64,000 nt of DNA from Candidatus Falkowbacteria bacterium (GTDB lineage Bacteria > Patescibacteriota > Patescibacteriia > Patescibacteriales > GWE2-39-37), in NCBI GenBank assembly GCA_013336275.1, contig JAAXUA010000003.1:66698-130697 (forward strand), given 5' to 3'. A program made the position numbers and the translations under genes. Under the pieces are notes generated by a model. The model was not told the DNA's origin. It saw nothing but the letters and a program-made list of their open reading frames with translations, and did not search any database. This document shows, one piece after another, positions 45,296 to 58,666 of this stretch (position 1 is its first letter; each line of letters opens with the position of its first letter).

Positions 45296-45335
45296 AAAAA
45301 AAACACCCTAACGTCAATTGACGTTAGGGTGTTTT
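45296..45335 (-). terminator. Terminator: 30-nt perfect palindrome ACACCCTAACGTCAATTGACGTTAGGGTGT
   Basis: The palindrome spans 45302-45331 with flanking A and T runs, downstream of the GalT-like gene. Confidence 0.7.
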
Positions 45336-45346
45336 TGTGGTCGAAT

Positions 45347-46273
45347 TTATTTTTTATAGAATTTTGCCGCTTCTTCAGGCGAGACGGAATTAATAATCAA
45401 TCCGGAACTTATCTCAATGCCCGCCCAGACGGAGTCTCGCGGCTGAAGCTTAAGATAAAAATGCTGGTTAGGCTCAGAAATCGCTTGCTGGGTAAAAAAA
45501 TTATATGGGATGCCTAGGATGTGCAGTTTTATCAAAGCTCTTTTTAGGGCATAGGCCAATGATTTTATTTCAGCCTGATTAAGATCGGTCATATTGTCTA
45601 TGTGCCTTTTTGTCATGAACCATAGTTCATAGTGATATTCGCTGGCATAGGGTGCGAAAACAAATAGCTGGTTGTCTTCATAGACCAATCGCTTGCTTCG
45701 AGACTCCTTTTTGATGATATCGCAATAAGGGCAGGTGCCGTGCTCGCTTTTGTAGCGCTCAGCTTCAGACATTTCGGTTATCAGCAAAGGGGGTAGGATT
45801 TTGGTGGCAAATACTTGGGAGTGTGAATGTGCTAGCGAGGCGCCAGCCTTTGAGCCGCTGTTTTTAAAAATCAAGATGTAATCGAGTTTCTTGTTTTTGC
45901 TCAAAACAGTTATGCGGCTTCGATATGTTTGCAAGACTTTTTCAAGCTGGGTTAGAGAAAATTCATGCATTTCTTTTCCGTGTTCGGGAGTCTCGACGAT
46001 AACCTCTTGTGTGCCAAACGCTTTAGGGTTGCTGGTGGTTACGGCCGGGTACTTGTTTTTAAGTACCATAACTTCCCAAGCCTTCTGGCCACCGACCGCG
46101 TCGATGATTAATTTTTTTTCAATCCCCTCTGGACAAAGTCCGCACTTGACGTCCTTGTGAATAACCGAGCTTTCGCGGACATCTCGTGGACGCTTTGCGC
46201 GCCCCGGGGTGATGATTACATACTTGTCTAGAAAATAGTCTTTGCGAATTTCGGAGGAAGGTTTGATTATCAT
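45347..46273 (-). CDS. GalT-type (HIT superfamily) hexose-1-phosphate nucleotidyltransferase
   Basis: N-terminal Zn site CGLCPEG and active-site SLAHSHSQVFA (HxHxQ). The ATG at 46273 is preferred because the track start at 46315 lies inside a 23-bp hairpin arm. Confidence 0.7.
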   Translation of the reverse strand: MIIKPSSEIRKDYFLDKYVIITPGRAKRPRDVRESSVIHKDVKCGLCPEGIEKKLIIDAVGGQKAWEVMVLKNKYPAVTTSNPKAFGTQEVIVETPEHGKEMHEFSLTQLEKVLQTYRSRITVLSKNKKLDYILIFKNSGSKAGASLAHSHSQVFATKILPPLLITEMSEAERYKSEHGTCPYCDIIKKESRSKRLVYEDNQLFVFAPYASEYHYELWFMTKRHIDNMTDLNQAEIKSLAYALKRALIKLHILGIPYNFFTQQAISEPNQHFYLKLQPRDSVWAGIEISSGLIINSVSPEEAAKFYKK

Positions 46274-46312
46274 TTCTTTTGGTTTGAGTTTAATATTATC
46301 AGTATAGCAAAA

Positions 46313-46365
46313 CATCGCCCAACAAAAAAACAGCGAGGCTGCCGCTGTTTTTTTGTTGGGCGATG
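46313..46365 (-). terminator. 23-bp perfect inverted repeat (terminator after copA)
   Basis: CATCGCCCAACAAAAAAACAGCG-AGGCTGC-CGCTGTTTTTTTGTTGGGCGATG, verified base by base. Confidence 0.65.
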
Positions 46366-46370
46366 TAAGC

Positions 46371-49300
46371 TTATTTTTTTAGGACGAAACCTTGGCCCAC
46401 ATAATGCATCGAATCAAGAGCGGTTTGGGTTTCAGGCAGAATGCCAGCTACAATAATGTTATTACCGAAAAAGTTATCTATGGTATCGCCTGGCTTAGTG
46501 ATCAGTTTTGCTCTGATCATCATCTCGGCTTCAGAGCTGCCGACGTATATGGGCAGGAACTTCGTTTCACCTAGGGCGACTTCGTCAAAGCCTTTGATTG
46601 AAGTTTTTAATTTCTCTGGCGTGTTAGTCGCATTTACGAAGTAGAAGTTTTTGGTAATATCCTTTTCTGCCACAATCTTGATTTCGGCCGAATTGGTCAT
46701 ATTCAACAAAGTTTTGCCATTAACGAAATGGTAGTCATCGATTAGTGTGCCGGTCGGTTCTATGATGCCGACGATCTTGACGCTGGACAGGCCGAAGAAA
46801 TCCTTCAGTGAGTCGCCAGGGCCTTGGATCAACTTTTCCTCTTTCATCATCATGGCCTCTTTATAGCCGATGACCATTTCGTAATCACCTAAAGCCAAGG
46901 TGCCAGCGTTGGCCTTGAGGCTGCCGGGCAGGCTTTCGGCACCGAGGAATAGTTTTGGATTGCCTTCGGCGAAATTGATCTTAGTCTGGCCATTGGCCAA
47001 GAAGGTGTTCAAGGTGGTGGCGGTTTCAATGGAAACCGTTTTGTTCATCCCCTGGTTTTCCATGCCGGAACTGAATTTAGCGAACTCGAAGAAACCGAAG
47101 GTGAAGACGATGACCATTATCAGTGGCGCGACGAGCGAGGCATAGTTGCGCTTGCCGGGCCGGAAGTAGCGCAGTAACAAGGAGTTGGTAACCACGGAAA
47201 TCGAACTCATGGCCATGGCTAGGCCAGCCAGCTCGGGCTTGAGAATCAAGCCGAAACCGGCGAAGATGCGGGCTGCAATCGGGATGCCGATGACGTTGTA
47301 GAAGAGGGCGAAAAACATATTTTGCTTGATCTTGCCCATGGTTTCGCGGGCCAGCTCGAGAGAGGTGACAACGTCGTTCAGGTCGTTTTTCATGATGACG
47401 ATGCCGCCGGTTTCCATGGCCACGTCAGTGCCGGACCCCATGGCGATGCCCAGGTTGGCTTGGGCAAGGGCGGGGGCATCATTGATGCCATCGCCGACCA
47501 TGGCGACGCGCTTTCCGGTGTCCTGTAATTTTTTGACTTCATTAGCCTTGTCTTCGGGCAAAACCTCGGCCAAGACGTTGGTAATGCCGACTTCTCGGGC
47601 AATCGCTTGAGCGGTGCGCTGGTTGTCGCCGGTAATCATGTAGACTTCGATGCCCATGGCTTTGAGGCTGCTTATGGCCGCAGCAGTGGTTGGCTTGACC
47701 GTATCAGCTACGGCGATGGCACCGAGGATGGACTCTTTGGTGGCCAATATCATGGCAGTCTTACCTTGCTCCTCCAACTTGGCCAGTTTGCGATTAATCT
47801 TGTCGATTGGGTGGCCCAAGGTTTCGCTCACTAGCTTGCGATTGCCGAAGTAATAAACTGTGCCATTGATCGTGCCTTGGACGCCGTGTCCGGGGATGGC
47901 GGTGAAATCAAGGACTTCGTCGAGGCCGAAGTCTTCTTCTTGGGCGTGGGTGTAGATCGCTTCGGCCAAGGGATGTTCGGATAATTTTTCCAGACTGGCA
48001 GCGATAGTGAGCACCTCATCTTCGTCCAGATTGGCGAAATTCAAGACGTCGGTTACTTCCGGCTTGCCCTTGGTCAGGGTGCCGGTCTTGTCAAAGATGA
48101 CGGTATTTATCTTGCAGGCCGCCTCCAGCGGTTCGCCGCCCTTGATCAAGATGCCATATTCAGCACCTTTGCCGGTACCGACCATCAATGAAGTTGGGGT
48201 GGCTAGGCCAAGGGCGCAGGGGCAAGCAATGACGATAACTGCGGTAAAGGCCATGAGGGCGAAGGTGAGGGTCGAGCCGAGCAGGAAATACCAGACGCCG
48301 AAGGTGATGATGGCGATGCCGATGACGGCTGGGACGAACCAGGCAGAAATGCGGTCAGCCATATTTTGAATCGGCGCCTTAGACCCTTGGGCGTCTTCGA
48401 TCAGGCGGATGATTTGGGCCAAAGCGGTTTCGGAGCCGATGCGGGTGGCCTCGAATTCGAAGCTGCCAACCTTATTGACGGTACCCCCGATAACCGAGTC
48501 GCCAATATGCTTTTCGACCGGCAAGCTTTCACCGGTAATCATGGATTCGTCGATGGCTGAACCGCCCTTGGTAATCTTGCCGTCAACCGGCACTTTCTCG
48601 CCCGGACGCACCATAATGATGTCGCCATGGACCACTTCTTCGACCGGGATGTCCATGGTTTGGCCGTTGCGGATGACGCGGGCGGTTTTGGCTGACAAGT
48701 CCATCAGCTTCTTGATGGCGTCAGAGGTTTTGCCCTTGGTGCGGATTTCTAGCCACTTGCCCAAGATTACGAAGGTGATCAGGAAGGCGGCCGTTTCGAA
48801 GTATAAATCCGGAATCTTGCCATTAAGCCCGATAAGCGAGCGGGTGTTAAAGTAATATATGGCATAGTTGGCCAAGCTGTAGATGAAGGCGGTCGAAGTG
48901 CCGATGGCAATCAGGCTGTCCATGTTGAAGGTCTTCATCTTGAGCGAGGACCACATGCCCTTGTAGAAGCCAGCACCGATAACTAGCTGGATCGGTAGGG
49001 TGAAGAGCAGCGAGATGATGCCGATGTAGGGCGATAAGGCGATCTTGCCTGGGAGCCAAGCGAAGAAATCCAAAAACATGAAGTACAGCATGGGCAAGCT
49101 CAGGACGAAGCTGACCCAGAATCTGGTCTTGTAGGAGACAATCTCTTTCTCACGCTTTTTGCTTTCGTATTCGCTGTCCTTGGCGTCGACCTCTTCGGCT
49201 TTGTAGCCAGCTTTTTCCACGGCCTTGATGAGAGCTTGAAGGTTGGTGGAGGCCTCGTCGAAAACCACCGAAGCTTTTTCGGCAGCGAAATTGACGTTGG

Positions 49301-49949
49301 CCTGCTTGACGCCAGGAACTTTTTTGAGTGAGCGTTCGATCAGACCGGCGCAAGAAGAACAGTGCATGCCGTAAAGAGAGATGTTGGCTCGCTTGGCGTG
49401 GTTGGTCTGTGACATTGCGGATTCCATGACGGGGGCGGACACTTGCCTGGGCTCAGCCGACTTTGAGCCGCTTAAAAGCGAATCGAACAGACCCGCCAAG
49501 CTGGCGGTATTGCTTAGTTGATCGACAAATTCTTTAGCCCCTGGCTGATTGTCCGGAACGCTGAACTCGGCAAGCTTGTTGTTGTGGATCTTGCCTTCGA
49601 AGTAGGGTTTGCCGTCACTGCCGGAAAGGACGCGACCTTCGGCCTCGATGTTAGCTTCGAGCTTGATTTTCAGCGGTTGGCCATTTGATGTCTGGTTCTT
49701 TTTGATGGCCACACCCTTTTCGGCTGCCGGCAAATCGATAATAACTGCCTGGTAGCCAGCTCTCTCCACGGCAGCTAACACCTCATCTGTTGAAGTCAGA
49801 GAGGTGTCCAGCTCTAAGCTGGCTCGACCGGTTTTATGGTCAATGCTGATATTTGATACCCCGGCCAGTTCTTCAAGTTCAGCCGCGGTGATTTTTTCAC
49901 AGGATGCGCAATGCATGCCTGTAATCGATATCTTGATCGGTTGTTTCAT
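46371..49949 (-). CDS. copA: Heavy-metal (Cu-type) P1B ATPase with two N-terminal HMA domains and a 256-aa C-terminal extension
   Basis: GMHCASCE and [11 protein letters not shown] motifs, TGES, CPC ([11 protein letters not shown]), DKTGTLT and GDGINDAP. An extra TM helix and duplicated module follow the core. Confidence 0.92.
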
Positions 49950-49953
49950 AGGG

Positions 49954-50157
49954 CTATTTAATTGAGTAATCGGTACCGCTTAATGCGGCTTGTGCCTCTT
50001 TGATTTCGATCGGGCGCTCAGCCGTAATGGCAGTGTCGCCCGTTACAGGGTCAACAACCACGTTACTGACTCCTGGAATTTTTGCCAGCTTCATGGTGCA
50101 AAGCTTAGCACAAGCACTACAAGTTAGTCCTTGTATTGAAAACGATAAGGTGTTTAT
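49954..50157 (-). CDS. CopZ-like HMA (metal chaperone) domain ORF without a canonical start codon; not in the supplied ORF track
   Basis: Hand translation gives (I)[66 protein letters not shown]. It is in frame with, and 3 codons after, the TAA of the upstream gene. Its TAG lies 4 nt before the copA ATG. Confidence 0.5.
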
Positions 50158-50166
50158 ATGAGTAAG

Positions 50167-52002
50167 TTAATTAACAGTAATGTGTCCTCGGACCATGCCC
50201 ATGGCGCAGGTGATCTGGTAGGTGCCGGGTTCGGTGGGGGTGAACTTCATGGTGATTTTTTTGCCAGCCTCAAGAAGCTGCAGGTCTTCTGCAAGATCGG
50301 ATACCTTAATATAGTTCATGCAACCGGCGCCATCTTCTTGGGCGTCGATCTCGAAGCGGACTGGCTTGCCTGCCTTGACGGTAAATTCGCTCGGCTGAAT
50401 GTCGGTAGCTTGGGTATAAACGGTTTTGATGACCTGCTCATCAGTGGCTGCGTCGTTTGTCGTTATGGCAGGCTTGGCGTCGATCGGAGCGGTTTTTTTG
50501 CCGCCACAACCACAACCGCCGCCAGAGGAACCGCAAGAGCCGCCGCCATTGATTGCCGTAGCCGAGTCGTCAGCAGCGGCATTGGCCGAGGGGGCTTTTG
50601 AAGAAGAGGAGTCAACCACATTAAAGCTGCCAGTGTACATTCCCATAGAGCAGGAAAATTTGATAGTACCGGCATTTTCGGGCGTGAATTCTATGACATT
50701 GGGACCGGCCTTAAGCGTTCTGCTGATGTTGAGCTGGCGCACGACCAAGGCGCTGGCGCACGAATAGGGGGCCTGGGCGTCAATTTCCCAGCGCACGGGC
50801 ACTCCTGCCTTGATGGTAAAACGGTTCGGTTCGTATCCTCGATTCGTTTCGGTCATACTGACAACCTGGACCCCGTTTACCATTTTTACGTTGGGGTCGC
50901 TTGTGACAACGTCCCGAGAAGAGGCACTAGCCAGATCGGGAACCCAGCCCAGCAGTGTTAAGCCATTTTTCAGGTTGAACAATGAAAGCAGAACCACAAT
51001 CGTTCCGGCGAACTTGAAAAACTTTTTAGCCGACCCGCCCTTGAAGATCGAGGTAAGTCCACCCACCCCCAAAAGTCCAGGCGCGGTGCCTAGTGCGAAC
51101 AAGCCCATTATCAATGCTCCGTCACCTATGTTTCCGCTGGAAACCGCATAGAGCTGCATTGCCTGCGTAAACCCGCACGGCAAAAAGAAAGTGGCGGCAC
51201 CAAGAATCATTGAGTTCTTGTGGCTATACTCTTTGTTTTTCGAGTCAATCCCCAATTTTTTGGCCAGTCCTTTCGGTAGGGTTAATTTGACCGTGTTGAG
51301 TTTTGGTATCAATTCGGTAAGTTGTAAGCCCATAAGCAGCATGACCAGACCCACCAATACGGTAAGGAAGGCGCTGAGCTCTAGGGAAAGCTGGAAGGCT
51401 GACCCCAAGAGTCCTAAAAGGCCGCCAAAAAAGGCGTAGCCAAGTACCCGCCCCCCGTTAAAGTAGAGGTGTGGACGAAATTTTTGCTTAGAAGTCGCTT
51501 CTGGATGATTTTCAGAAAACTTGGCCGACATCCCGAGGGTCAATCCGCCAACCAGGGCCATGCAGGTTGAAAATCCGGCTACAAGCCCTACTAAAATGAC
51601 AACTCCAAGGCCCGATGGGTTGTCGGACGCACCGATATTCATGTCGGTTAGGCCGAAGAACTTCAAAATGCCGTAAATCAAGAAGGCAAGAAGCAGCGAT
51701 TTAATGACGGTTTGGTAGTCTTCCTTGTTAGTGCTGAACCAAGCTGTTTTTTCTGCTTGGCCGATAGAGTAGCCTGCCTCGTGGATGGCTTTTTCTAGTT
51801 TGTGGATTTGAGGCGAAGAATTTTCCTCAAAAAAGATATCAGCCTTTCCGGCTTTGAAACTTATTTCGGTTTTTTTTACATCCTCGACTGCCGAGAGCTT
51901 CTCTTCAAGCAAGAGTTCGCAGGATCGGCAATGCATGCCATTGATCGGCAACGTAATTTTGTGTAATTCGTTCATAGTTAAGTCAGTTAATGAAATAAAC
52001 AA
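50167..52002 (-). CDS. HMA domain + TauE/SafE-like (DsbD_2-type) polytopic membrane core + two cupredoxin-like Cys/Met domains
   Basis: N-terminal GMHCRSCE, about 6-7 TM helices, and two C-terminal repeats (YSCASALVV..FSCSMGMYTGSF and AGCMNYIKV..ITCAMGMVRGHI) separated by a Gly/Ser/Cys linker. Confidence 0.7.
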   Translation of the reverse strand: MFISLTDLTMNELHKITLPINGMHCRSCELLLEEKLSAVEDVKKTEISFKAGKADIFFEENSSPQIHKLEKAIHEAGYSIGQAEKTAWFSTNKEDYQTVIKSLLLAFLIYGILKFFGLTDMNIGASDNPSGLGVVILVGLVAGFSTCMALVGGLTLGMSAKFSENHPEATSKQKFRPHLYFNGGRVLGYAFFGGLLGLLGSAFQLSLELSAFLTVLVGLVMLLMGLQLTELIPKLNTVKLTLPKGLAKKLGIDSKNKEYSHKNSMILGAATFFLPCGFTQAMQLYAVSSGNIGDGALIMGLFALGTAPGLLGVGGLTSIFKGGSAKKFFKFAGTIVVLLSLFNLKNGLTLLGWVPDLASASSRDVVTSDPNVKMVNGVQVVSMTETNRGYEPNRFTIKAGVPVRWEIDAQAPYSCASALVVRQLNISRTLKAGPNVIEFTPENAGTIKFSCSMGMYTGSFNVVDSSSSKAPSANAAADDSATAINGGGSCGSSGGGCGCGGKKTAPIDAKPAITTNDAATDEQVIKTVYTQATDIQPSEFTVKAGKPVRFEIDAQEDGAGCMNYIKVSDLAEDLQLLEAGKKITMKFTPTEPGTYQITCAMGMVRGHITVN

Positions 52003-52035
52003 GCAGGCAAAAATGCCCGTTTAACTGAATCAACC

Positions 52036-52425
52036 CTAGATTCTTAATATGATGGTGTCGAGCGCGACCTGATTTGGTGGCGCCTGGAAGCTTTTTGGCT
52101 TCAAGGTCTCCTTGTCCGCCAACGGAACTTGGCTAAAGTACAAGGAAAAGAGATAAAGTGATTTGTTGAATTCAAAAACTGCAAGCAATGGCGCGGCGTC
52201 GCTGCTTTTCTTGTCGGCACAGCAAGGTAAAATATCCTTTTGCGCCCCGTTTTTCTTTTCGGCGCCGGCATTTTCATGAGCGTGGCAAGCTCCATGGATA
52301 TCATCCGTGGCCAGAGCGGGATCGATATTCATGAGAAAGGCGTGGAAAAAATTCGCCATAATCAAACCGAGAATGACGGAAATCATCCCGATGTGGTGCA
52401 AATTTTTTAGAATCCGCCTAGTCAT
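52036..52425 (-). CDS. Small membrane-anchored His/Cys-rich protein (hypothetical metal-binding)
   Basis: One TM helix, then HGACHAHE and LPCC motifs. Its start abuts the csoR stop with no gap (52425/52426). Confidence 0.45.
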   Translation of the reverse strand: MTRRILKNLHHIGMISVILGLIMANFFHAFLMNIDPALATDDIHGACHAHENAGAEKKNGAQKDILPCCADKKSSDAAPLLAVFEFNKSLYLFSLYFSQVPLADKETLKPKSFQAPPNQVALDTIILRI

Positions 52426-52695
52426 TCAGTTGAATTTCTTATAAACCTCTAAAAGCTCGGCTATCGTTTGCTGTTCGCGATTCCCCTTGATAGCATTTAC
52501 CACGCAGGTTTTGAGGTGGTTCGAAAGCAGCACCTCCTCAGCTTTTTTGATAGCTCCTCGGACGGCCGATGCTTGCTGTATCACGTCGAGACAATAAGCA
52601 TCTTGTTCGATCATTTTGATGATCTTGTTCAGATGGCCGGCAGTGATTTTAAGCCTTCTGGTAGCATCTTTCTTGGCGCAGGAAATTGGTGTCAT
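52426..52695 (-). CDS. csoR: CsoR/RcnR family metal-sensing repressor
   Basis: RLKITAGHLNKIIKMIEQDAYCLDVIQQASAVRGAI...HLKTCV (Cys-His-Cys ligand pattern). The ATG at 52695 is preferred over the track start at 52749. Confidence 0.88.
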   Translation of the reverse strand: MTPISCAKKDATRRLKITAGHLNKIIKMIEQDAYCLDVIQQASAVRGAIKKAEEVLLSNHLKTCVVNAIKGNREQQTIAELLEVYKKFN

Positions 52696-52704
52696 AGTTT
52701 TCTG

Positions 52705-52727
52705 ATTACCCTCCCCAGGGGGGTAAT
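52705..52727. promoter_or_regulatory. CsoR-type operator: ATTACCC-TCCCCAGGGG-GGTAAT G/C-tract palindrome
   Basis: An imperfect palindrome lies 10 nt upstream of the csoR ATG. A TATATT -10-like hexamer (52731-52736, minus strand) sits just upstream of it. Confidence 0.6.
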
Positions 52728-52765
52728 CTAAATATAGCGCTTGTGCCATGTGGTGTCAAGAAAAT

Positions 52766-52795
52766 AAAAAGGCGGCCTCTAGGGCCGCCTTTTTA
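52766..52795 (-). terminator. Terminator after the DsbA-like gene
   Basis: GGCGGCC-TCTAG-GGCCGCC with flanking A and T runs. Confidence 0.7.
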
Positions 52796-52808
52796 TTTTT
52801 TAAGAGGA

Positions 52809-53552
52809 TTATTTCAATTCGGCTTTGATCATGCCTTCAATTGTCGAGTATGGCACAGCGCCAGGGATGGATTTTCCATTAATGAAACTGCCAGGAGTTC
52901 CCCTTACTCCCAGACCCTGGCCTTCTTGCAAGTCCGCGCTTACCTTGGCGGCCATTTTACCAGAAGACAAACAGGCGTCGAATTTGCCAGTGTTAAGTCC
53001 GAGCTCTTTTGCAGCGGTCGCTAGGTATTCAGCGCTTAGACTGCTTTGATTGGCGTAAAGCTTGTCGGTGTACTCCCAGAACTTGCCTTGCTCGCCAGCG
53101 CACTCAGTCGCCTCGGCCGCTTTTCTGGCCATCGGATGGATGGAGTCAAGCGGGAAGTGGCGAAAGATCCAGCGCACGTCCTTTGAATAATTTTTCATGA
53201 CCTGAAGCATGGTATCGTGGTAGCGGGTACAGAAAGGGCACTGGATGTCGGAATATTCAACGATGGTTATTTTGGCATTCTTATTGCCGCGAATGTGGTC
53301 GTCCTTGGCAATCTTGATATCGACCTTAGCGCCAGCATCTGCGCTTGGCTGCGCTTTTGCGCCGGAGTCGTCATTCTTGACGATTGGAGCGGGGTCGTCA
53401 CTACCGGCATCGAAACTGCCGTCAGAAAATTGGGCTTTCAGATAAAGGCCCAAAAACAGCAAGAAGCCTATAAAGGAGATGGCGGCAGCGCCACTCACCA
53501 AACCGAGAATGAAGCTGGTTTTTGAACGGATGAGTTTTTCTTGGCCTAACAT
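52809..53552 (-). CDS. Membrane-anchored DsbA-family thiol:disulfide oxidoreductase
   Basis: N-terminal TM helix, a low-complexity linker, and a thioredoxin fold with CPFC. Confidence 0.8.
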   Translation of the reverse strand: MLGQEKLIRSKTSFILGLVSGAAAISFIGFLLFLGLYLKAQFSDGSFDAGSDDPAPIVKNDDSGAKAQPSADAGAKVDIKIAKDDHIRGNKNAKITIVEYSDIQCPFCTRYHDTMLQVMKNYSKDVRWIFRHFPLDSIHPMARKAAEATECAGEQGKFWEYTDKLYANQSSLSAEYLATAAKELGLNTGKFDACLSSGKMAAKVSADLQEGQGLGVRGTPGSFINGKSIPGAVPYSTIEGMIKAELK

Positions 53553-53571
53553 AATATGATGTTAATGATTT

Positions 53572-53916
53572 TTAAGCGTAGTAATGTGGCTTGTGGACGC
53601 AGCGGTCGCAGTATTCGATCCAGGGTTCGCGGCGCAAATCCTCTTCTTTTATTTCCGCACCGCACTCGATGCAGCGGCCATATGTTCCGTCCTTGAGACG
53701 GCCGATGGCGTCTTCGATGCGACCCAGGATTTCCCGGTGGACCTTGACCAAAGACTCTTCGATGATGTCTTCTGTGGCATCATGCGCCAGGTCTTCGGCG
53801 CTAGGGTTGTCCATGGTTTCTTCGGGAGTGGTTAATTTGGCGATTTCTTGTTCGACCGCAGCCCGTTCCTCCTCTAAGCGCTGGGTCAGTTCTCTGATAA
53901 GTGAATCACTGTACAT
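53572..53916 (-). CDS. DksA/TraR family C4 zinc-finger protein
   Basis: Coiled-coil N-terminus and CIECGAEI...YCDRC. Confidence 0.8.
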   Translation of the reverse strand: MYSDSLIRELTQRLEEERAAVEQEIAKLTTPEETMDNPSAEDLAHDATEDIIEESLVKVHREILGRIEDAIGRLKDGTYGRCIECGAEIKEEDLRREPWIEYCDRCVHKPHYYA

Positions 53917-53975
53917 GAGAAAAGCTTAGTTTTTAAGTGGTTTCATTTTAGCACAAGGTTTTTAATAAATAAACC

Positions 53976-54491
53976 CTAGCGTTTATACAGATAGATAGAT
54001 GCCTTTTGGGGTTCTGGCCGGCTTATTTTATCAGGAGTCCAGCCTTCAATGGCGAAGGCATATGAGATTACCCTAGCCCCGGCCTTGAGTTCGCGTTCGA
54101 GCTTCGGGCGCAGCTTGCTCTTGAGCTTGTCTGGTATTCCGAAGACATAGACAACATCGTAGCCAGCCAAAGAGTGCTTGAATAAATCCCCCCAAAGGTA
54201 GTTTATGTTCCGGCGGCCACCGAAAAACTGGGTGGTTAAGCACCAGAAGTAGAAAGGCAGCGCAAGCTCGATACCGTAAATGTCGGCTTGGCAGTTCGCG
54301 GCCGCATAGCGGGGCACGGTGCCGGTGCCGCAGCCGAGATCGATGAACCTATCACCAGGCTTCAGCTCAGCAAGCTCTAGAATCCTAGGAAGATCATGCT
54401 TGCGCGTAGGCACCCAAACAATCAAAGACAAGGACGCTGCGGCAACTGAAAGGAGTGGGATGAAAATCAGAAAAAAGATGAACCAGATCAT
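53976..54491 (-). CDS. Membrane-anchored class I SAM-dependent methyltransferase
   Basis: N-terminal TM helix, then motif I FIDLGCGTGTV. The ATG at 54491 is preferred because it avoids overlap with the upstream stop at 54497. Confidence 0.7.
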   Translation of the reverse strand: MIWFIFFLIFIPLLSVAAASLSLIVWVPTRKHDLPRILELAELKPGDRFIDLGCGTGTVPRYAAANCQADIYGIELALPFYFWCLTTQFFGGRRNINYLWGDLFKHSLAGYDVVYVFGIPDKLKSKLRPKLERELKAGARVISYAFAIEGWTPDKISRPEPQKASIYLYKR

Positions 54492-54496
54492 TTTAT

Positions 54497-55771
54497 TTAT
54501 TTGGGCACAGCCTCTGTGCAGAGAGTGTCTTCGTCGCAAGAGTAGGGCTCATAGCAGTAAAAGAACCGCTCATCTTTACAGCAGGCAGCATTGCGGTAGC
54601 CGCAGGGAGCCCGCTTGATGAAGACTTGGGTGATGATGAAATAATCCTTGATTTGGGCCACGCCCATGCCGGCTTCGTCATATTCTCCGTTAAGAATGTT
54701 GCGGCGGTGTCCGGGGCTGTTCATCCAGCCGGTAACGGCTTTTTGTTCAACTTCTTCGATGCTGTAATAGGTCGTTTCAAGGACCGTGATGACAGGAGAA
54801 TTTTCCAGCAGCCCCTCGCGGCGCTTAATTTCTGCCTTTAAGGTTTTGATTTTTTCTTCAGTGCTTGTGGCTTGATGGACCCTTTTATCATATTCGCTGT
54901 TGGACTGCACTTGTTCTCCTTGGCAGTCTTGTTCCTGGATACCAGTGCTTTCATAGGTCCCGTCCTTGATGTGGGGAGTCAGGGCGATGTTTTCGGCGCT
55001 GCCGCTGAAGTAATAGATTCCCTTGCTATTGAGCCGCTCACTTTGGTAAATGCCGAAATTCTGTCCCTCATGGTGGATGAAGGGGTAGCTGCAAAGGCGG
55101 ATGCTGCTGATAAGAAATTTGTTTTCATCGGCTTGATTCTGGCTGTGCTCACGTGCAACTGCGGCCACTTCATCGTTCCATGCAAGAGCAGACAAGCCGT
55201 TTTTTGTGCGCTCCTTGTTGATAAGCGCATGGATTTCCTTTTCCATTTTCCCAAGCAAATTTGATGGGTTCTGCGGAGTCGTAGTTCCTTGGGGTGGCTG
55301 TGGCGAGGTGGGTTGGGCAGTGAATCCCAGCGGGAGCTTGTTTATTTCACGATCGGTAATGCCAAGACCTAGACGGCGCATCACGTTGAAGGCATCGGCA
55401 GGACGGCCGAGGAAGTTGAGCGAAAGGTTGCCTGGGTAAACATAATAGGCCTCGCCTGATTTTTGTGTCCGTATAAGAATTCTGCCAGAAAGGCGTTTTT
55501 TTGAAACGGAGTTCAGTCCATTGAAATCTTTTTCACTGATACCCAGCCCCAGCTGGCGCATGACGGAAAAGGCATCAGCGGGGCGACCGAGAAAATATCG
55601 GCGGTCATCGACTGGGCTGACATACCAAGCCTCACCGTGTTGCTCGACCTGTATCAGAATACGGCCGCGAAGCCTGACGCTTGGCGCTTCAGCTTGAAGC
55701 AATGGCAAAGGCAGGCTTGTCAGCAGAATTATTGAAAGCAGCCATGAAAATTGTAAAAACGTTTTTTTCAT
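54497..55771 (-). CDS. Secreted protein: two GRPADAF repeats + CAP/SCP (YkwD-like) domain with a large insertion + Cys-rich C-terminus
   Basis: Signal peptide and repeats at aa 36-78 and 96-138. CAP motifs are LAWNDEVAAVAREHS and GWMNSPGHRRNIL. The tail is CGYRNAACCKDERFFYCYEPYSCDEDTLC. Confidence 0.75.
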   Translation of the reverse strand: MKKTFLQFSWLLSIILLTSLPLPLLQAEAPSVRLRGRILIQVEQHGEAWYVSPVDDRRYFLGRPADAFSVMRQLGLGISEKDFNGLNSVSKKRLSGRILIRTQKSGEAYYVYPGNLSLNFLGRPADAFNVMRRLGLGITDREINKLPLGFTAQPTSPQPPQGTTTPQNPSNLLGKMEKEIHALINKERTKNGLSALAWNDEVAAVAREHSQNQADENKFLISSIRLCSYPFIHHEGQNFGIYQSERLNSKGIYYFSGSAENIALTPHIKDGTYESTGIQEQDCQGEQVQSNSEYDKRVHQATSTEEKIKTLKAEIKRREGLLENSPVITVLETTYYSIEEVEQKAVTGWMNSPGHRRNILNGEYDEAGMGVAQIKDYFIITQVFIKRAPCGYRNAACCKDERFFYCYEPYSCDEDTLCTEAVPK

Positions 55772-56148
55772 ATATAATTTTCGAAAACGGACAGTCTTTA
55801 AAATTTATTCCAAGGCCGGGCGGATTTCGAGAATGACGAATTGTGGCGAGCGGATTTTTGAGAATACGGTGTTTTTGCCCAGATAGATAAGGCTCGTATA
55901 TTGATAGCGATTACGACACCCATGATCAGATAACAGCTTAGCGGTTGTAAGTTAGCTTCTAATATTAGCCAAAGAGATAAAAAAAGCAACAATAAACTAA
56001 GCGGTAGTTGGTTGGAAATGTTATTGACCAAGTCGCTGATCAGTCTGAAAAAAAACATAATCTTAGATTAAGGGCATATTCATTATATAGTATCTTTCGA
56101 ATTTTGACAGGATAGGTTAGAATTAACTTATTATTTTAAAGATATTGA

Positions 56149-56565
56149 ATGGCAAGCTGGATAAGCTTCGCCCCGGTTAAAAGAAAACCTCCTAGGCGTA
56201 AGCGGCGCGTTACAGCAACCGGTGCGGAATTAAAAAAATATAGGACGCACAGAGAAGAAGCGAGACGGAGGATTTCAGAGCTTTTGATTAGGGTGAGTAG
56301 CCACTACGGCCTCAAGTATGGGCGGGTGGCGATTAGGAATCAGCGCCGGTCGTGGGGCAGTTGTTCGCAGGCCGGAAACCTCAACTTCAACTATCGGATA
56401 CTTTTTTTGCCCGAGCATCTCCAAGAATATATTGTTGCTCATGAGTTGTGCCACCTTAAGGAGTTCAATCACGGTCCGTTCTTTTGGAAGCACGTCTCAT
56501 CGTATGTGCCGAGCTATAAGAAAATAAGAAAAGAATTAAAAACAATACCAATTTCTTCAATATGA
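56149..56565 (+). CDS. DUF45/YgjP-like (M48-related) zinc metallopeptidase
   Basis: HELCHLKEFNHGPFFW motif and a basic N-terminus. Confidence 0.8.
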   Translation: MASWISFAPVKRKPPRRKRRVTATGAELKKYRTHREEARRRISELLIRVSSHYGLKYGRVAIRNQRRSWGSCSQAGNLNFNYRILFLPEHLQEYIVAHELCHLKEFNHGPFFWKHVSSYVPSYKKIRKELKTIPISSI

Positions 56566-57203
56566 TCAAACTTTTACTAGAGCACATAGCGACGTGGGTT
56601 ACCGGCCTTATAAGCGCATACGGAGGCTGGTCCATTTTCGGATTGATGGCCGCCGAATCGGCAAATATACCGATTCCCTCGGAGGTTATTTTGACTTATG
56701 CGGGCTTTTTGGTGAGCAAGGGCGAATTAAACTTCCACTTGGCAGCTCTAAGTGGCGCGCTTGGCTGTCTTTTTGGGTCGGTTATCTCTTACATAATCGG
56801 TCTTAAGCTTGGTCGGCCGTTTCTGTGGAAGTATGGCAAATGGCTGCTTATCTCGCGGCACGACTTGGTTAAAGCGGAAAAATTTTTGGAAAAATATGGG
56901 ACAGCGACTTATTTTATTTCCAGGCTGCTGCCCGTAATCAGGACCTTTATCTCTTTGGTAATCGGCGTTTCTAAAGGGAGTTTCGTCAAATCAAATCTTT
57001 ATGGCTTTTTTGCTTCTTGGATATGGAGCTACCTCCTTGTTTATGTAGGAGTTAAGCTTGGCGACAACTGGGAGTCCCTAAGGCCTTGGTGGGATAAATT
57101 CAGTTTTGCTATCATTGGATTGATATTACTTGCCGTAGTTTGGCACGTGGTGCGAGTTTTCAGACACGAGCCAGAAGACTCGATTGGTAGTGATAATGTT
57201 TAA
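56562..57203 (+). CDS. DedA family membrane protein
   Basis: ESANIPIPSEVILTYAGFLV and the DedA/SNARE-associated core. It has a 4-nt overlap with the upstream gene. Confidence 0.85.
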   Translation: MIKLLLEHIATWVTGLISAYGGWSIFGLMAAESANIPIPSEVILTYAGFLVSKGELNFHLAALSGALGCLFGSVISYIIGLKLGRPFLWKYGKWLLISRHDLVKAEKFLEKYGTATYFISRLLPVIRTFISLVIGVSKGSFVKSNLYGFFASWIWSYLLVYVGVKLGDNWESLRPWWDKFSFAIIGLILLAVVWHVVRVFRHEPEDSIGSDNV

Positions 57204-57225
57204 TGATTGTTTTGAGTGTATAACA

Positions 57226-57250
57226 AAAACAGCCCATTGGGCTGTTTTTG
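57226..57250. terminator. Bidirectional terminator between DedA and the NRAMP gene
   Basis: AACAGCCCATTGGGCTGTT with flanking A and T runs. Confidence 0.6.
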
Positions 57251-57262
57251 TTAGGCTGCTAT

Positions 57263-58666
57263 TTAGAGGAATAAAGAGTAGATCGTCGCGAGTCCGGCCA
57301 ATACCATCAGGCTGACAACCGCCCAGCCTAGAAATTTATTAATGCCGCCATTGGCATGCTTGCCCATGACCTTTTTATTGCTGCTTATGATGACGATTGG
57401 CGCTAAAACCATCGGCGCCACCAGGCCGTTGGCGACAGCTGAATAAATCAAGGCCTTGATCGGATCGAGGTCGATAAAGTTTAGTGCTAAGCCGACAAAA
57501 ACCGAGATGATGATGACGCCGTAGAATGCCTGGGCGCGGTCCAGCTTGTTATATAGACCTTCCCGCCAGCGGAAGCTTTCAGAGAGAGCATAAGCGACCG
57601 AGCCAGCAAGGACTGGTATGGCCAATAGTCCGGTGCCGATGATGCCTAGCGTAAAAAGGAGGTAGGCGTTATCACCGGCCAAGGGCTTTAGGGCGGCGGC
57701 TGCATCGGCCGCGGTGTTGATGTTGGTGATGCCGCTAGCGAACAGAGTTGCCGAACAGGTAGCGATGATAAAGAACATGACCAGATTGGACAGGAACATG
57801 CCCGACCAGATATCGAGCCTCATCTCTTTGACTTCTTGGTCAGTGGCACCGACACGGTCCTTGATGCGCGTTTTGCCTTGAAGAATCTCTTCTTCGACTT
57901 CTTGGGAGGTCTGCCAAAAGAACAGGTATGGCGAAATGGTTGTTCCGAGGACACCGGTTATCAAAATGATCGATTCTTTGTCCCAGGAAAAAGTCGGCAT
58001 GAAAGTCGACTTCAAGACATCCAGCCAGTTGATTTCGACAAGCATGGCCGTAAAAACATAGGATAAGAGAATCAGTGCCAGCCACTTGAGGTAGCGGGCA
58101 TATTTTTGGTAGGTGGTGAATATTTGTAACCCCAGGGTCAGGCCAGCAAAGGCGAAAACCAATAATCCGAAATTCAGCTCTGGCAGCAAGAGTTGGGTGG
58201 CTTTAGCCATGGCACCTAGGTCGGCGCCGATATTGAAGGTATTGGCGGCAAAAAGCAGGGTCGTCGCAGTATAAAGTACCCAGGGCGGCAAAAATTGTTT
58301 GATATTTGAAGCCAATCCGCGGCCCGTAACCAGTCCGATTCGCGCGCACATCTCTTGGGCGACAGCCATCAAAGGAAAAGTGAATGTAGCCAGCCAAAGC
58401 CATTGGAAGCCATAACGGGCACCCGCCTGGGAGTAGGTGGCAATTCCTGAAGGATCATCATCAGCCGCTCCGGTTGTCAGACCTGGGCCGAGCAAGTGCC
58501 AATACTCAGCCGCTTTTTTTATCGGCTTCTGGTTCGCAAAAATAGAAGCGACTTTTTTTGATCCGTCGATAGTTTTTTCCAAAATGATGGCCGGTTCTTC
58601 AGCGATTCTTTCAACGAGCGGACGTGAGCGGACGATTCTTTTTTTCTTTGTTTCTGATTTTCCCAT
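57263..58666 (-). CDS. NRAMP-family divalent metal cation transporter
   Basis: LGPGLTTGAADDDPSGIATYSQAGA motif and about 11 TM helices. Confidence 0.8.
   Translation of the reverse strand: MGKSETKKKRIVRSRPLVERIAEEPAIILEKTIDGSKKVASIFANQKPIKKAAEYWHLLGPGLTTGAADDDPSGIATYSQAGARYGFQWLWLATFTFPLMAVAQEMCARIGLVTGRGLASNIKQFLPPWVLYTATTLLFAANTFNIGADLGAMAKATQLLLPELNFGLLVFAFAGLTLGLQIFTTYQKYARYLKWLALILLSYVFTAMLVEINWLDVLKSTFMPTFSWDKESIILITGVLGTTISPYLFFWQTSQEVEEEILQGKTRIKDRVGATDQEVKEMRLDIWSGMFLSNLVMFFIIATCSATLFASGITNINTAADAAAALKPLAGDNAYLLFTLGIIGTGLLAIPVLAGSVAYALSESFRWREGLYNKLDRAQAFYGVIIISVFVGLALNFIDLDPIKALIYSAVANGLVAPMVLAPIVIISSNKKVMGKHANGGINKFLGWAVVSLMVLAGLATIYSLFL

Follow-up and report, generated by a model that had tools for sequence, protein, structure and literature searches.

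A copper gene cluster lies on the minus strand of a 64,000-nucleotide stretch of contig JAAXUA010000003.1 from a Candidatus Falkowbacteria bacterium (the window, by which we mean that whole stretch), and within it a small reading frame for an HMA domain sits between the gene for a membrane protein and the copper-exporting ATPase gene copA. The cluster reads, in order, csoR, a hypothetical gene, a gene for an HMA/DsbD_2/cupredoxin membrane protein, copZ and copA (Table 1). The original prediction, drawn from the letters of the window, had singled out the small frame as a hidden CopZ-like domain that lacks a canonical start codon and follows, in frame, the TAA stop of the membrane-protein gene, and it had listed as possible explanations initiation at an ATA codon, termination-reinitiation, readthrough of the TAA, and a recent mutation or sequencing error. 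Here we describe this frame as copZ, a conserved gene in its own right whose start position holds ATA in the window and ATG in its close relatives.

The open reading frame (ORF) of the membrane protein ends in ...ATT ACT GTT AAT TAA (GHITVN-TAA), and past this stop the same frame continues through the three codons of the spacer into ATA AAC ACC TTA TCG TTT, then TCA ATA CAA GGA CTA ACT, and then TGT AGT GCT TGT, the codons of a CxxC motif. It closes with ...DYSIK (TCA ATT AAA TAG; the TAG is at 49956-49954), and four nucleotides (ccct) separate this stop from the ATG of copA (49949-49947). The end of the upstream ORF, the in-frame continuation and the 4-nt gap to copA had all been described before with the strand unstated, and all of them hold on the minus strand. 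It had also been claimed that ATG, GTG and TTG are missing ahead of the CxxC and that the only in-frame ATG follows it, and the sequence bears this out: the stretch from the TAA to the CxxC contains no in-frame ATG, GTG, TTG, CTG, ATT or ATC, and the sole in-frame ATG of copZ is that of M22. For copZ, the mechanical ORF list contained just a 46-aa ORF (49954..50094) beginning at this codon. Among the 79 window ORFs that reach 120 aa or more, 40 end in TAA, including most long ones, and as the commonest stop of long ORFs TAA is the normal stop in the window. We rejected a genome-wide reassignment of TAA, given that most long window ORFs terminate there, and dropped a frameshift from the upstream ORF, as inspection of GTT AAT TAA CTT ACT revealed no slippery or prfB-like motif. 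Searches of the window with Rfam and ARAGORN returned three tRNAs, all elsewhere, and nothing near the copZ junction.

Table 1. Features of the copper gene cluster and of the copZ junction, in window coordinates.
Feature	Position	Strand	Remarks
DsbA-like thioredoxin	52809-53552		
CsoR-family metal-sensing repressor	52426..52749	-	Head of the conserved cluster
Conserved 129-aa hypothetical protein	52036..52425	-	NTW22560.1 (HGA34_03405); without a Pfam family
602-aa membrane protein	50167..51975	-	NTW22559.1 (HGA34_03400); TAA stop at 50169-50167
Spacer between upstream TAA and ATA	50158..50166	-	9 nt, CTTACTCAT; Shine-Dalgarno motif absent
copZ-like gene	49954..50157	-	67 codons plus TAG stop; ATA start (50157-50155)
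ATA codon	50155..50157	-	ATG in six close relatives; third base G to A
CxxC metal-binding motif, C13-S-A-C16	50110..50121	-	beta1-alpha1 loop; C13 = 50121-50119, C16 = 50112-50110
Internal ATG (M22)	50092..50094	-	Middle of helix alpha1, 3' of the CxxC
copA, Cu-exporting P1B-type ATPase	46371..49949	-	1192 aa; two N-terminal HMA domains

The 70-residue translation of the copZ frame matches the Pfam HMA family (PF00403) at 38 bits (E = 2.2e-9) over profile positions 2-61 of 62, and because this match spans nearly the full profile and exceeds the gathering cutoff of 24.8 bits, the frame is real and no chance ORF. In an AlphaFold2 model with a mean predicted local distance difference test (pLDDT) score of 88.5, the CopZ-like protein has a predicted beta-alpha-beta-beta-alpha-beta (ferredoxin-like) fold in which the CxxC lies between beta1 (residues 2-9) and alpha1 (residues 14-25), and the best matches of this model in a Foldseek search of the PDB were CsoZ (6ff1) and CopZ (6ff2 and 2qif), with template modelling scores (TM-scores) of 0.84-0.88. 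The earlier description of a ferredoxin-like HMA domain is upheld by both the Pfam match and the model. The product resembles the CopZ and CsoZ chaperones of Bacillus subtilis (CopZ, 2qif) and Streptomyces lividans (CopZ and CsoZ, 6ff2 and 6ff1) in its length of about 67 aa, its fold and the placement of its CxxC in the beta1-alpha1 loop, and its gene lies, like theirs, directly 5' of copA in a CsoR-headed cluster. It differs from them in its motif, GLTCSAC(AKLC) as opposed to GMxCxxC, in a third conserved cysteine (C20), in being 15-20% identical to the solved CopZs, and in a gene that starts at ATA. Against the NCBIfam CopZ equivalogs (NF033795, NF033794 and NF047957) it scored 18-28 bits, where the cutoffs are 85-95, and we therefore label it a CopZ-like protein with an HMA domain; to call it an equivalog of the B. 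subtilis or E. hirae CopZ would go too far. Domain match and model together identify the gene product as an HMA-domain, CopZ-like protein, a putative copper chaperone predicted to bind Cu(I) and to transfer it to CopA.

We compared the locus with those found by scanning GTDB species representatives with the membrane protein, which yielded 48 loci, nearly all of them from Patescibacteria. Six distinct close relatives entered the comparison (L002, L003, which lies on the same contig as L008, L004, L005, L006 and L057), the nearest at about 80% nucleotide identity to the window. All six share the gene order of the window and possess a 67-codon copZ with ATG at the exact site of the window's ATA, and their CopZ proteins are 70-88% identical to the window's. 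The CxxC (C13-S-A-C16) is invariant across all six orthologues, and codons 2-21 are the best-conserved portion of the gene. Relatives without the domain, an outcome envisaged in the original prediction, are not found among these six. The upstream TAA is kept in every one of them, and the spacer between it and copZ measures 9 nt in L004-L006, in frame as in the window, and 8 nt, out of frame, in L002, L003 and L057. Farther afield, eleven distant loci, L009, L010, L012, L013, L014, L017, L020, L031, L033, L036 and L038, have a small HMA gene between the membrane-protein gene and copA, all with ATG, at spacers of -1 to 124 nt and in frames 0, 1 and 2. Altogether, a stand-alone HMA gene of 67-68 codons with its own ATG lies directly 5' of copA in 17 loci, and an HMA domain fused to the C-terminus of the membrane protein was found in none of the 48. 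An alignment of orthologous loci had been proposed as a way of telling a fused gene from a separate copZ with ATG, and its outcome is a separate copZ. In many other distant loci (e.g. L011, L016, L022 and L024), copA directly follows the membrane-protein gene with no separate copZ between them. Across roughly 100 HMA-initial genes in these loci, the commonest start lies 12 codons before the first cysteine, which matches the position of the window's ATA. In scans of metagenomes, neither the CopZ alignment nor an invariant DNA pattern of 26 nt found a match.

Since ATG stands at the homologous codon in all relatives, the window carries a lineage-specific change of the start from ATG to ATA in a conserved separate gene, and since frames and spacers vary and fusions are absent, we regard the in-frame arrangement of the window as coincidental. 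The ATA is positionally homologous to the ATG of the orthologues, and no canonical start would yield an intact domain, as expected of a near-cognate start. Of the mutations originally considered, a change in the start codon agrees with the ATG of all relatives, and a nonsense mutation at the TAA falls away because every close relative has kept that stop.

A homology search with the 70-residue peptide retrieved NTW22558.1, a 67-aa protein (MNTLSFSIQ...) entitled 'heavy-metal-associated domain-containing protein [Candidatus Falkowbacteria bacterium]' and identical to the window's copZ product with ATA read as (f)Met. NTW22559.1 and NTW22560.1 correspond exactly to the window's membrane protein and 129-aa protein and come from the same 195,363-bp contig; from the consecutive accessions and identical proteins we infer that GenBank already annotates copZ from the ATA. 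'Hidden' was thus too strong a word for a domain that is missed only by callers limited to ATG, GTG and TTG. Prodigal-type callers also chose the 46-aa version from M22 in the window's Logan contig and in L004-L006, where copZ was truncated despite a proper ATG (L004, 3938-4141; L005, 1934-2137; L006, 3938-4141), and because these three relatives possess the upstream ATG we consider the 46-aa call a caller artefact. The copZ of L057 (2687-2890) was missed altogether by the automatic caller. Small genes that begin 8-9 nt past an upstream stop and are without Shine-Dalgarno motifs are systematically under-called. A 412-aa protein (P0008) that appeared as a 'cluster mate' of the 46-aa call was rejected as a fusion, being an unrelated protein and a clustering artefact.

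The coding sequence of copZ has remained constrained. In pairwise comparisons between the window and its relatives, the ratio of nonsynonymous to synonymous substitution rates (dN/dS) was 0.06-0.17 at dS values of 0.6-1.1. Codons private to the window comprise 14 of synonymous type and 2 of nonsynonymous type, and the normalised private-codon ratio is 0.045 for copZ, whereas the membrane protein has 0.18 and the N-terminal region of CopA 0.10. Under a simple Poisson model, neutrality over more than about 5-10% of the window branch is rejected at P ~0.05, and we found no frameshift, stop or excess of amino-acid changes in copZ that would signal decay. In the lineage with the ATA, the copZ coding sequence is thus intact and constrained by purifying selection, so that the mutation must be recent unless selection has continued to act on the gene with its ATA.

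We favour, with a probability of about 0.6, the interpretation that copZ is a separate, conserved gene whose start codon changed from ATG to ATA, that it is still intact and constrained, and that it is most likely translated weakly from AUA. In this lineage the third base of the copZ start codon has changed; the initiator tRNA would now start copZ on the near-cognate AUA, at a reduced level. Initiation there may be aided, through translational coupling or reinitiation, by ribosomes fresh from termination at the TAA 9 nt before it, the genome being one without Shine-Dalgarno motifs. Initiation at the ATA, as first proposed, gives an N-terminus equal to that of the orthologues and to that in NTW22558.1, and we take the use of AUA itself to be probable. 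Termination-reinitiation was put forward as a separate possibility, which it is not, because reinitiation would also use the ATA; as a contribution to initiation it is plausible, for the spacer is 9 nt long and Shine-Dalgarno motifs are absent.

The setting of the gene is consistent with such a contribution. A Shine-Dalgarno-like 4-mer precedes 3 of 56 window genes, compared to a background of 8%, the leaders are A/T-rich, and the genome is essentially without Shine-Dalgarno motifs. A literature search on Shine-Dalgarno usage in Patescibacteria found nothing relevant. Of the 40 same-strand gene pairs in the window, 11 are separated by -8 to +12 nt, and spacers of 2-9 nt between same-strand genes are numerous. 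Termination-reinitiation has been judged plausible at spacers of -8 to +10 nt (PMC10666635), a range taken as predictive of reinitiation that includes both the 9 nt between the membrane-protein gene and copZ and the 4 nt between copZ and copA. Short spacers being frequent here, the copZ junctions resemble the translationally coupled genes studied previously (Huber et al. 2019, PMC6728339; PMC10666635), from which they differ in that the studied cases have canonical starts and mostly overlaps of -4 or -1.

Precedents for initiation at AUA come from other bacteria. In E. coli, AUA initiates at 1-2% (range 0.02-3%) of the level of AUG (bioRxiv 10.1101/063800), a spontaneous ATG-to-ATA change in rpoS of E. 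coli O104:H4 lowered RpoS at most 5-fold (PMC12864459), and the native hopF2 gene of Pseudomonas syringae DC3000 has an ATA start (PMC11641854). Like the window's copZ, hopF2 and the mutated rpoS have a near-cognate ATA in the place of ATG in an otherwise normal gene. In these two cases expression was lowered and not abolished, as shown at the protein level in Proteobacteria that use Shine-Dalgarno motifs, whereas copZ of the window belongs to a genome without such motifs and has its ATA 9 nt past an upstream stop.

Several points weigh against weak translation of an intact copZ from AUA. AUA is a poor start codon in the organisms tested so far, and its use in copZ is something that we infer. 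Both assemblies that carry the ATA probably share reads, and a sequencing error or minority variant could lie behind the codon. The signal of selection is averaged over a long branch, on which a mutation within the last few percent would leave no trace, be the gene functional by now or not. Finally, many distant relatives are without a separate copZ, and the gene may therefore be dispensable.

The alternative that fares best, which we consider unlikely but deserving of serious attention, is that copZ is a nascent pseudogene, silenced by a very recent change from ATG to ATA and not yet decaying, with the two HMA domains of CopA and that of the membrane protein covering its function. The low yield from AUA in E. 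coli (~0.02-3% of that from AUG; 10.1101/063800) fits silencing, loss of copZ is evidently tolerated in the many patescibacterial relatives in which copA comes directly after the membrane-protein gene (L011, L016, L022 and L024), and the selection test leaves room for a spell of neutrality shorter than about 5-10% of the branch. Against this, copZ shows no frameshift, stop or excess of amino-acid changes, its constraint on the window branch exceeds that of the neighbouring genes, and natural genes with ATA starts yield usable protein (PMC12864459, PMC11641854). With the copA start only 4 nt past the copZ stop, silencing of copZ might moreover disturb copA, if the two are coupled.

It is improbable that the true or dominant codon is ATG and that the ATA stems from an error of sequencing or assembly or from a minority variant in the population. 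What speaks for it is that the codon differs by a single base from that of all relatives, and that the two ATA-bearing assemblies, GenBank and Logan, were probably built from the reads of one run, SRR11449212. Two different assemblers nonetheless agree on the base: the Logan contig from this run (L001) matches window positions 45307-57975 (12,669 bp) at 100% identity, ATA included. The site also lies outside any homopolymer. Consensus substitution errors are uncommon in short-read assemblies, which likewise argues against an artefact.

Programmed readthrough or recoding of the TAA, which would extend the membrane protein at its C-terminus by a second HMA domain and had been among the explanations first offered, is highly improbable. 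The window and L004-L006 do have the HMA frame in the frame of the upstream gene, with the TAA and three codons between, but the 8-nt spacers of L002, L003/L008 and L057 place it out of frame, distant relatives use all three frames at spacers of up to 124 nt, and not one of the 48 loci has the fusion. TAA is also the predominant genuine stop in the window, and a slippery or readthrough-type context is absent. By crude hydropathy and the positive-inside rule, about seven transmembrane segments are predicted for the membrane protein, its N-terminus lying inside; its C-terminus, and any HMA domain fused to it, would then be outside the cell and away from the cytosolic domains of CopA. That the real product is instead the 46-aa peptide from the internal ATG is scarcely credible, since, although it was the choice of Prodigal-type callers for the window's Logan contig and even for L004-L006, these relatives possess the upstream ATG, M22 lies inside alpha1 after the CxxC so that the peptide would be without beta1 and the metal site, the M22 position is Leu (TTG) in L002 and L057, and the best-conserved codons of copZ would be left out.

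A second ATA at a start position was seen in the copA of L024 (CAYVHS010000016.1, 2044-2090). This ATA, at 2056-2058, lies exactly 12 codons before the first cysteine of GMHCSSC and overlaps the upstream TAA (gaATAAca), where L016 and L011 have ATG; in the L024 gene, no ATG, GTG or TTG follows the preceding stop until the Met of GMHC is reached. An ATA at the start position beside a stop thus occurs in 2 of about 100 HMA-initial genes, the window's copZ and the copA of L024, which are independent cases. It is conceivable, though doubtful, that AUA is genuinely used at tightly coupled junctions in Patescibacteria without Shine-Dalgarno motifs, with start discrimination relaxed at reinitiation and the change from ATG to ATA kept under selection and not a step towards loss. 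If ATA starts beside stops prove recurrent and functional, they would inform the fidelity of start-codon choice in reinitiation without Shine-Dalgarno pairing.

Starts at ATA are rare but known, and the copZ coding sequence is already in GenBank, so the finding is real but ordinary; on its own, the ATA start of copZ has little importance and is a minor curiosity, and no recoded domain is involved. Its wider meaning lies in annotation: what looks like a 'domain without a start codon' may turn out to be an ordinary small gene that begins at a near-cognate codon and is truncated or missed by callers limited to ATG, GTG and TTG. For the annotation of the candidate phyla radiation (CPR), or Patescibacteria, it draws attention once more to the under-calling of small genes in tight operons without Shine-Dalgarno motifs.

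The membrane protein encoded upstream of copZ had been described as a 611-aa ORF, which is correct as a TTG-to-stop reading and too long by nine codons as a gene, in that all orthologues begin at an ATG (MNELHKI...) that gives 602 aa. It comprises an N-terminal, cytosolic HMA domain, a DsbD_2 transmembrane region and two cupredoxin-like domains, an unusual architecture in which a Gly/Cys-rich linker, GGGSCGSSGGGCGCGG, joins the two cupredoxin-like domains. This HMA/DsbD_2/cupredoxin protein adjoins copA widely in Patescibacteria (48 loci), and its GenBank label is merely 'hypothetical protein'.

Beyond its P-type ATPase core, CopA continues at the C-terminus for about 260 aa (residues ~930-1192; window 46371-47160 on the minus strand), an extension that is without a Pfam family and is conserved in relatives, CopA being 1202-1209 aa long in L057 and L003. 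The exact 1192-aa CopA is on record from the Logan assembly only, and the three genes 5' of copA have consecutive NCBI accessions; the GenBank annotation of copA may have a different start or be that of a pseudogene. The start of csoR is also uncertain because its called lengths differ widely, at 62, 89, 91, 107 and 119 aa across the window, L001, L003, L004 and L006.

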